Source: Mustelus asterias (lineage: Eukaryota). From it: a stretch of 64,000 nucleotides of DNA. Below are positions 30,713-31,426 of the stretch, one piece after another (position 1 is the first letter of the stretch; each line of letters begins with the position of its first letter). The notes under the pieces were generated by a model, which was not told the DNA's origin, did not search any database, and worked only from the letters and a program-made list of their open reading frames with translations. A program made the translations under genes and the position numbers. The stretch is from assembly GCF_964213995.1 (NCBI RefSeq), contig NC_135808.1:99510001-99574000 (forward strand), read 5' to 3'.

Positions 30713-31426
30713 TTAAACAGATATAGTGGATTTCACTTTAGACGAAAGAGCCTGTTTTAATTGTCTTCCAAGGTCTTGCATATTTGGCCATTTGGACCTG
30801 GCTAAAAGCAGACCCCTTGTCCCCATCATTGCTTCCGATCACTTTACTGGCCTCATGGCAGACTGGGTGGAAGGCAGCACGAACCTCAATTTCCTCTGGC
30901 AGAAATTGATCCAAAAAGCAGTCTTTCCCCCACTCCCCAACCCATTGCCTTCATTGATTTCCACTAGTTTTTTCTGCGTATGTGGTAAATCAGCCTAGTT
31001 TCCTATCAGCACAAATGGAAGTCTAGCTTTGGGATTGATCTTCCTGATTCTGCTGAAGGAATGAATGGAGCCTTCAGGTCCTTAAGTGAAAAGATGAAAA
31101 CAAAACCATCTGCCCAGTGAATTGAGCAGGTTATATCTGGACTGCAAGAATCATCACCATTTGCCTGATTAGCATAGGGACTGTCTTGCACTCAATGAAT
31201 TTGATCACCACTGTTACTAATCTGTCTCAAGTATAGAGCTCTTGTGTTTAGTTCATAATCTCCAATGAATCATTTTGTAAGAAACTGTACTATCTAAGCA
31301 GTCTTTCCAACCCTCCTTGCTCCCAGCACTATGATCTTCACATTTCTGTTATGCAGTTACCTCTGGTAAGAGAAGCAGTAGGAATTTACTCGAATTGTTT
31401 GACATGGTGTTCTGGAGGAGACGCAT
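30713..31426 (-). pseudogene. Intronless RASL11-family (RASL11A-like) small GTPase pseudogene
   Basis: Hand translation: MRLLQNTMSNNSSKFLLLLLPE / [59 protein letters not shown] / IRKINPKARLPFVLIGN*ADL / ISARGN / EVRAAFHPVCHEASK / [30 protein letters not shown]. At least 4 stops and at least 4 frameshifts. Confidence 0.88.

Follow-up and report, generated by a model that had tools for sequence, protein, structure and literature searches.

A RASL11-like sequence with a broken reading frame lies between ORC1 and a CC2D1 gene in the window, the whole stretch of 64,000 nucleotides of Mustelus asterias DNA analysed here, and it raises the question of whether a RASL11 gene died at this place or whether the sequence arrived as a copy of a gene that resides elsewhere, and by which route. 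An earlier note on this DNA, which described a broken minus-strand reading at 30713..31426, had offered both a dead third RASL11 paralogue and an old retrocopy as explanations. All the motifs quoted there were found at their places. The minus-strand sequence can be read in three frames from an ATG at 31426, through RASL11-like motifs, to a stop at 30715-30713, and its coding part, aligned to the parent gene on C4 described below, holds the following features.

30713..31426, minus strand: RASL11A-like (RASL11C) coding sequence, a processed and disabled copy (aligned to the spliced parent)
31357..31359, minus strand: stop TAA next to a 14-nt deletion at 31360, the first lesion of the frame
31294..31296, minus strand: stop TAG right behind the P-loop (TTG in the parent), a point change
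31270..31272, minus strand: stop TGA (CGA in the parent, CpG decay), a point change
31192..31194, minus strand: stop at a 2-nt deletion
30995..30997, minus strand: stop TAG replacing the NKxD lysine (AAG in the parent), a point change

The copy and the spliced parent are identical at 602 of 703 aligned letters of the coding sequence (85.6%), and they are separated by five stops in the copy and by 13 indels, nine of which are not multiples of three, amounting to 55 gap letters in the coding sequence alone. Four of these stops, including the one that removes the NKxD lysine, had been reported correctly, whereas the fifth (31359-31357) and the 13 indels had been overlooked. The 61-aa piece that had been given as the sole listed open reading frame of the copy was recovered at 31006-31191, and it is the only one of at least 60 aa in the copy's coding frame. 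Pfam searches of the read-through pieces matched Ras weakly in one of two (E 2e-4, below the cut-off), and the exon-4 match to the parent in a DNA search of the animal's own genome was far above chance (E 9e-102). The former intron positions fall at 31299/31298, 31242/31241 and 31165/31164, and the loss of the introns is exact, since all three junctions are seamless when compared with the parent exons.

The same DNA search with the copy as query returned five matches, one to the window itself and four, in colinear order, to C4, where the parent gene is located.

C4:86807389-86836907: parent RASL11A-like (RASL11C) gene, four coding exons with an open frame

Its coding exons measure 142, 57, 80 and 468 nt, its GT-AG introns 6383, 7112 and 15277 nt, and its intact frame of 248 aa encodes a protein identical to that of the houndshark Mustelus asterias named 'ras-like protein family member 11A-like' (P0004). 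Two further intact RASL11 last exons are present in the genome, on C10 (61%) and C1 (54%). The exon-4 part of the copy is identical to the C4 gene at 370 of 442 letters, compared with 246 of 381 for C10 and 240 of 397 for C1. In a protein tree of 37 rows, the C10 locus groups with named RASL11A; this locus lies 30 kb from an RPL21 exon, RPL21 and RASL11A being linked genes. The C1 locus, by elimination RASL11B, served as a stand-in in this tree, which contains no protein named RASL11B. The parent groups with named 11A-like proteins in a clade of 23 rows (support 99/97), distinct from RASL11A and from the C1 locus, and the copy nests in the galeomorph part of the 11A-like clade (98/99), so the gene tree that had been proposed as a check places the copy with a parent other than RASL11A. 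A retrocopy of RASL11A or RASL11B was rejected on this tree placement and because exon 4 is closest to C4.

Around the parent, about 850 kb read in the order WASF-like, USP12/46-like, RASL11C, LNX, FIP1-like, CHIC and CDX (C4, 86.51-87.12 Mb), names that we assign from short motifs and the surrounding translations. The order Cdx4-Chic1-Fip1l2-Lnx3-Rasl11c-Uspl-Wave4 of frog and chicken, the proto-X-inactivation centre (proto-XIC), is described in PMC2430539, and the same order around the C4 gene identifies the parent as RASL11C, the gene with remains near XIST in eutherians. The earlier note had raised the possibility that a third paralogue was lost in mammals, which holds for eutherians and fails for platypus (P0070) and wombat (P0122), whose proteins fall in the RASL11C clade, the latter on a long branch (0.34); these members indicate that the loss of RASL11C is eutherian (PMC2430539; background on the family is found in PMC2186344). 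The complete proto-XIC order seems to be intact in a shark (G000:C4:86,509,000-87,124,000), its genes being known from short motifs, and our literature search found no shark paper on this order. Fip1l2 is said to have joined the group in an ancestral amphibian (PMC2430539); if the shark FIP1-like gene between LNX and CHIC is a true Fip1l2, its membership would be ancestral to jawed vertebrates.

The size of 714 nt first assigned to the element proved too small, and the earlier note had missed the homology of the untranslated regions, the CR1 tail at the 3' end and the transcription. The retrocopy extends from 31561 to 30231, including both untranslated regions, and unique homology is confined to transcript sequence within these limits, with none found outside. 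The features beyond the coding part are as follows.

31427..31561, minus strand: copy of the parent 5' UTR, with 27 differences in 131
30303..30712, minus strand: copy of the parent 3' UTR (aligned to the parent)
30231..30302, minus strand: old CR1-type LINE 3' end with stem-loop region and ATTCTATG-type octamer, the terminus of the retrocopy (aligned to the repeat family; same junction in the parent)
C4:86837252-86837805: CR1-type insertion of about 550 nt, of another CR1 subfamily, now in the parent 3' UTR and absent in the copy

The untranslated regions of copy and parent have diverged by 18-21%, and a weak 5' UTR similarity continues beyond 31561 for about 80 nt, to about 31640 (40 of 1000 shuffles). 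The fragment at C4:86837252-86837805 is younger than the retroposition, given its absence from the copy; the AATAAA that it carries at 86837363 may have made the parent mRNA shorter.

The 3' end of the copy is its unusual feature. In parent and copy alike, unique UTR passes into the tail at one and the same letter, without a gap. This 72-nt tail matches a repeat family (631 candidates, 40 of them scored), and 24 further copies of it, LINE-like and SINE-like, terminate at the same octamer within a few letters. Longer copies remain colinear over as much as about 690 nt and reach ORF2 C-terminal sequence with motifs of the CR1 type, and the tail region appears as a depth peak in the DNA runs at 30182-30314. 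A weak stem of 12 pairs with one compensatory change was predicted across 11 tails, the inner hairpin being decayed in parent and copy, and folding of single tails gave non-significant z-scores for four of four. For CR1, a hairpin and an ATTCTRTG octamer at the 3' end are reported as requirements and proposed as the priming signal (PMC8665684, PMC5729268), and the octamer of the tail matches this motif.

Past this terminus the likeness to the parent ceases: the 200 nt beyond 30231 hold no homology to it (923 of 1000 shuffles score as well), and when the 600 nt that follow were loosely aligned to 6 kb of parent sequence, the score exceeded that of 96 of 100 shuffles, but the alignment was gappy and unconvincing. 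None of 13 poly(A) signal variants occurs in the last 45 nt of the tail in copy or parent, no A-tract follows the end of the copy (only eight A in the next 30 nt), and the next AATAAA of the parent lies 654 nt past the tail. The search for target-site duplications (TSDs) yielded merely 5-nt or mismatched 7-nt matches at chance level, the 5' junction not being sharp, in agreement with the earlier remark that neither a poly(A) tail nor a duplication was visible. Four RPL21 retrocopies of the same genome were used as a control (L071, L072, L073 and L075), and all of them end at AATAAA or AATAAG followed by A, with tracts of 8-9 A in three and 3 A in one; L075 still has A8 at a divergence of 27%. 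Among these controls, L071 keeps an open frame of 160 aa, and TSD-like repeats of 5-6 nt were seen by eye in two of the four. Elsewhere in the genome (L067 and L068, G000:C9:90.796 Mb), a decayed sequence resembling RPS3A, interrupted by about 1 kb of inserted DNA and with a C-rich tract behind its end, is likely another processed copy.

The surroundings of the copy bear on what became of it. The neighbours had been named as ORC1 and CC2D1B, and both genes were recognised, ORC1 by its Cdc6_C domain and AAA lid and the CC2D1 gene by its DM14 exons; the name CC2D1B follows the synteny with ORC1. The profile PF01426 had no match in the window, and genome searches with PF17872 and PF08598 had no match anywhere, which is uninformative either way. 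ORC1, the copy and the CC2D1 gene all lie on the minus strand, with the following landmarks.

32156..32347, minus strand: last coding exon of ORC1 with its stop (32158-32156), matching ORC1 chains at E 2e-25 and located 595 nt upstream of the copy
32001..32006, minus strand: proximal AATAAA of ORC1 (from sequence)
30135..30140, minus strand: distal AATAAA; an RNA contig ends 15 nt further, at 30120
27233..27235, minus strand: likely start codon of CC2D1B, presumed from the likeness of the N-terminus to CC2D1B

Contigs of run X1 contain the ORC1 splice joint 32347/33408 and leave the intron uncovered except for repeats, and X1 behaves as RNA; it is a single run of a kind not on record, with contigs that carry no strand, and may stem from the study that produced the assembly. 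Over 32347-31386, 31415-31300 and 31327-30120 its contigs agree with the assembly letter for letter (0 differences, 0 gaps), so the lesions are real, as the earlier note had asked to be confirmed. An assembly error was rejected on this identity and on the stop sites of organism B described below. The three pieces are joined by inference, the breaks falling where about 30 consecutive letters of the copy match the parent. A long ORC1 3' UTR of about 2 kb likely holds the entire copy in sense, to 30120, and we consider it probable that the copy lies inside the ORC1 3' UTR. The proximal signal at 32006 would likely end a short 3' UTR isoform, to judge from the sequence. Two long RVT_1 frames (E about 1e-37) occur on the plus strand at 1040-2632 and 5873-7948 of the window, LINE remnants antisense in the CC2D1 region, and a GC-rich island (0.63) at 62001-63000, with long open frames and without a Pfam match, may be the ORC1 promoter region.

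The copy was also sought at the same place in relatives; the comparison covered contigs from 4 of 21 listed runs, differences being read among those listed. Three other organisms hold the same decayed copy; in organisms B, C and E it is joined to the ORC1 flank, with 61 differences in 2146 nt, 152 in 2384 and 196 in 3244, respectively. Organism B shows no change, among those listed, at the four stop sites of the earlier note. In organism C, the whole contig has 47 gap letters, whereas copy and parent differ by 55 in the coding sequence alone, so some of the indels are shared by organism C. As an observation apart, no letter change is listed for organism B in 31334-31513 (180 nt, at the 5' end of the copy), compared with about 3% around it.

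In the protein tree the branch of the copy (0.31) is 11-fold longer than that of the parent (0.028), and the copy's own branch (about 11%) would be roughly threefold the distance per lineage to organisms C and E. Of six residues private to the parent, the copy is ancestral at two, one change from the ancestral codon at two and gapped at two; at 101 and 109 its states are not those that Mustelus and Scyliorhinus have in common, and at 43 it carries an arginine of the galeomorph type. Together, these states weakly suggest that the event postdates the origin of galeomorphs and predates the split between catsharks and houndsharks. Pairwise dN/dS between copy and parent was 0.45-0.68 over six settings, and about 0.5-0.6 would be expected for a neutral copy compared with a constrained parent. 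Of 23 differences to relatives listed in the coding sequence, 22 could be placed, as 14 nonsynonymous and 8 synonymous changes (P 0.20-0.48 against neutrality, with small counts). The copy evolves like neutral DNA.

The sequence in the window is almost certainly a dead retrocopy of RASL11C. The object is an ordinary old processed pseudogene, and RASL11 function is not lost. The 'old retrocopy' alternative of the earlier note is borne out by the intron-bearing parent on C4, the three seamless junctions and the UTR homology. A unitary pseudogene, in which an ancient third RASL11 paralogue died where it stood between ORC1 and CC2D1B, agrees with the existence of such a paralogue in jawed vertebrates, but that paralogue survives intact on C4, within the proto-XIC gene order rather than next to ORC1, and the window copy is intronless, carries the parent UTRs and is nested in galeomorph sharks; we regard this reading, and with it the loss of the paralogue here, as next to impossible. 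Capture by an LTR element was rejected, both flanks having single-copy depth in three DNA-type runs.

For the route of the copy we favour, by a modest measure, priming by CR1 at the tail embedded in the parent 3' UTR. A 5'-truncated CR1 would have landed in sense in the last exon of the parent, and the spliced mRNA with its CR1 tail could then have been bound by CR1 ORF2 in the manner of a SINE tail. Reverse transcription beginning in the octamer would yield a copy without poly(A) and without UTR past the tail. In a galeomorph ancestor, the cDNA would have inserted some 600 nt downstream of the ORC1 stop, with the frame lost early; lacking a promoter of its own and lying behind that stop, the copy would have remained untranslated and decayed, and ORC1 transcripts passing the proximal signal would read through it to the distal AATAAA. 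That a spliced mRNA of the host exploited the sequence-specific machinery of CR1 as a SINE does is, in our judgement, slightly better supported than not, and the whole explanation, a dead, CR1-primed RASL11C retrocopy carried as a passenger in a long ORC1 3' UTR, appears on balance the probable one. The coincidence of end point and octamer is a single event that was noticed post hoc; a random end within 5 nt of such a tail would be expected in about 0.1% of cases genome-wide and about 1% in a tail-holding UTR (by hand estimate), both figures being calculated after the fact.

The same end could have been reached in two steps if an ordinary poly(A)-primed (L1/Tx1-type) retrocopy was once longer and lost its 3' part later, for example by tail-tail recombination, or if the cDNA recombined with a resident tail. 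Poly(A)-type retrocopies occur in the same genome, as the RPL21 copies show, and CR1 tails are dense (150 in 850 kb, about one per 11 kb per strand), with a SINE bearing the same tail following in the parent UTR region. The tail sequence does not distinguish origin from the parent from a resident copy either, since the copy tail matches the parent tail at 56 of 71 positions and nine other family members at 53-58 of 71, and so is no closer to the parent. Against this stand the need for a second event, the join of UTR and tail at an identical letter, gap-free, in parent and copy, and the failure to find parent sequence past the tail in the flank of the copy, so we rate the two-step route as possible but doubtful. 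It is unlikely that the ancestral parent mRNA was instead polyadenylated at the end of the CR1 fragment and copied from a poly(A) primer, with the A-tract decayed since: a UTR divergence of 18-21% would suffice to erase a short A-tract, and those of the RPL21 copies are merely 3-9 nt, but the tail lacks any of the 13 signal variants in both genes, the flank is not A-rich and L075 retains its A8 at greater divergence. We give very little credence to a former working retrogene, or to an RNA that is now a regulatory part of the ORC1 3' UTR with miRNA or protein sites common with the RASL11C mRNA. The copy is indeed at one place in all four organisms compared and is covered by RNA contigs, and a retrogene would agree with a pairwise dN/dS below 1 and with the unchanged 180 nt of organism B. 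That dN/dS, however, fits a neutral copy, as does the ratio of changes among relatives; by a hand estimate, 40 changes spread over 1347 nt would leave a stretch of 180 nt unchanged in about 17% of cases, the divergence of the copy to relatives resembles that of its flanks, and no second RASL11A-like gene was found among 30 listed cluster members from sharks, rays and chimaeras.

Our literature search, from which subscription journals were mostly absent, returned no printed retrocopy ending at an embedded CR1 tail. The top shark retrocopy parents, SUDS3 and SDF2L1, were searched for CR1 tails as a check of generality, with no Sds3 match and 16 MIR matches, all exon-sized. If the proposed origin is true, this locus would show a 'stringent' LINE producing a processed pseudogene in nature, and retrocopies of a second class, with octamer ends and not poly(A), would be predicted in CR1-rich genomes (sharks, reptiles and birds), derived from genes with tail-bearing UTRs irrespective of expression level. 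The insertion also offers a presence/absence marker for galeomorph shark phylogeny and illustrates how an essential gene, ORC1, has likely taken up a retrocopy into its 3' UTR.

Among known systems, the eutherian Rasl11c decayed in place between XIST and JPX, whereas the window copy is an unrelated retrocopy on another chromosome; its parent agrees with RASL11C/RASL11A-like (RSLBL) genes in clade and in the order Wave4-Uspl-Rasl11c-Lnx3-Fip1l2-Chic1-Cdx4. The copy resembles the processed pseudogenes of cartilaginous fishes in being intronless, bounded by UTRs, disabled and far from its parent. A survey of these fishes counts 14,081 retrocopies, 5.4% of loci, 95.7% of them called species-specific (bioRxiv 10.64898/2026.06.26.734816). 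Unlike the retrocopies surveyed, the window copy has neither a poly(A) signal nor an A-tract, terminates in a CR1 octamer, is common to at least four organisms and lies in a likely 3' UTR. LTR-mediated retrocopies, as characterised in PMC5131818, likewise lack poly(A) and are 3' truncated relative to the likely mRNA end; the flanks of the window copy differ in being free of LTR sequence. A closer parallel is found in SINEs with CR1-derived tails, such as shark HE1 with the LINE HER1 or bird TguSINE1, in which a non-LINE RNA likewise ends in a CR1 hairpin and octamer, although here a spliced mRNA of about 1.3 kb is carried, in one copy, with the tail within its UTR. The local tRNA-type SINE, presumably HE1, has its last 55 nt in common with the copy's tail. 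The HE1/HER1 pair is listed for sharks in PMC3747384. According to two reviews, CR1 recognises only its own 3' end, which limits hitchhiking RNAs and leaves few retrocopies (PMC5470649, PMC3136929), and the survey, by correlation alone, proposes that CR1 or Tx1 sustain retroduplication outside mammals (bioRxiv 10.64898/2026.06.26.734816). A retrocopy that ends at the octamer suggests how CR1 specificity and CR1-driven retroduplication can both hold, and it provides a signature that can be counted genome-wide.
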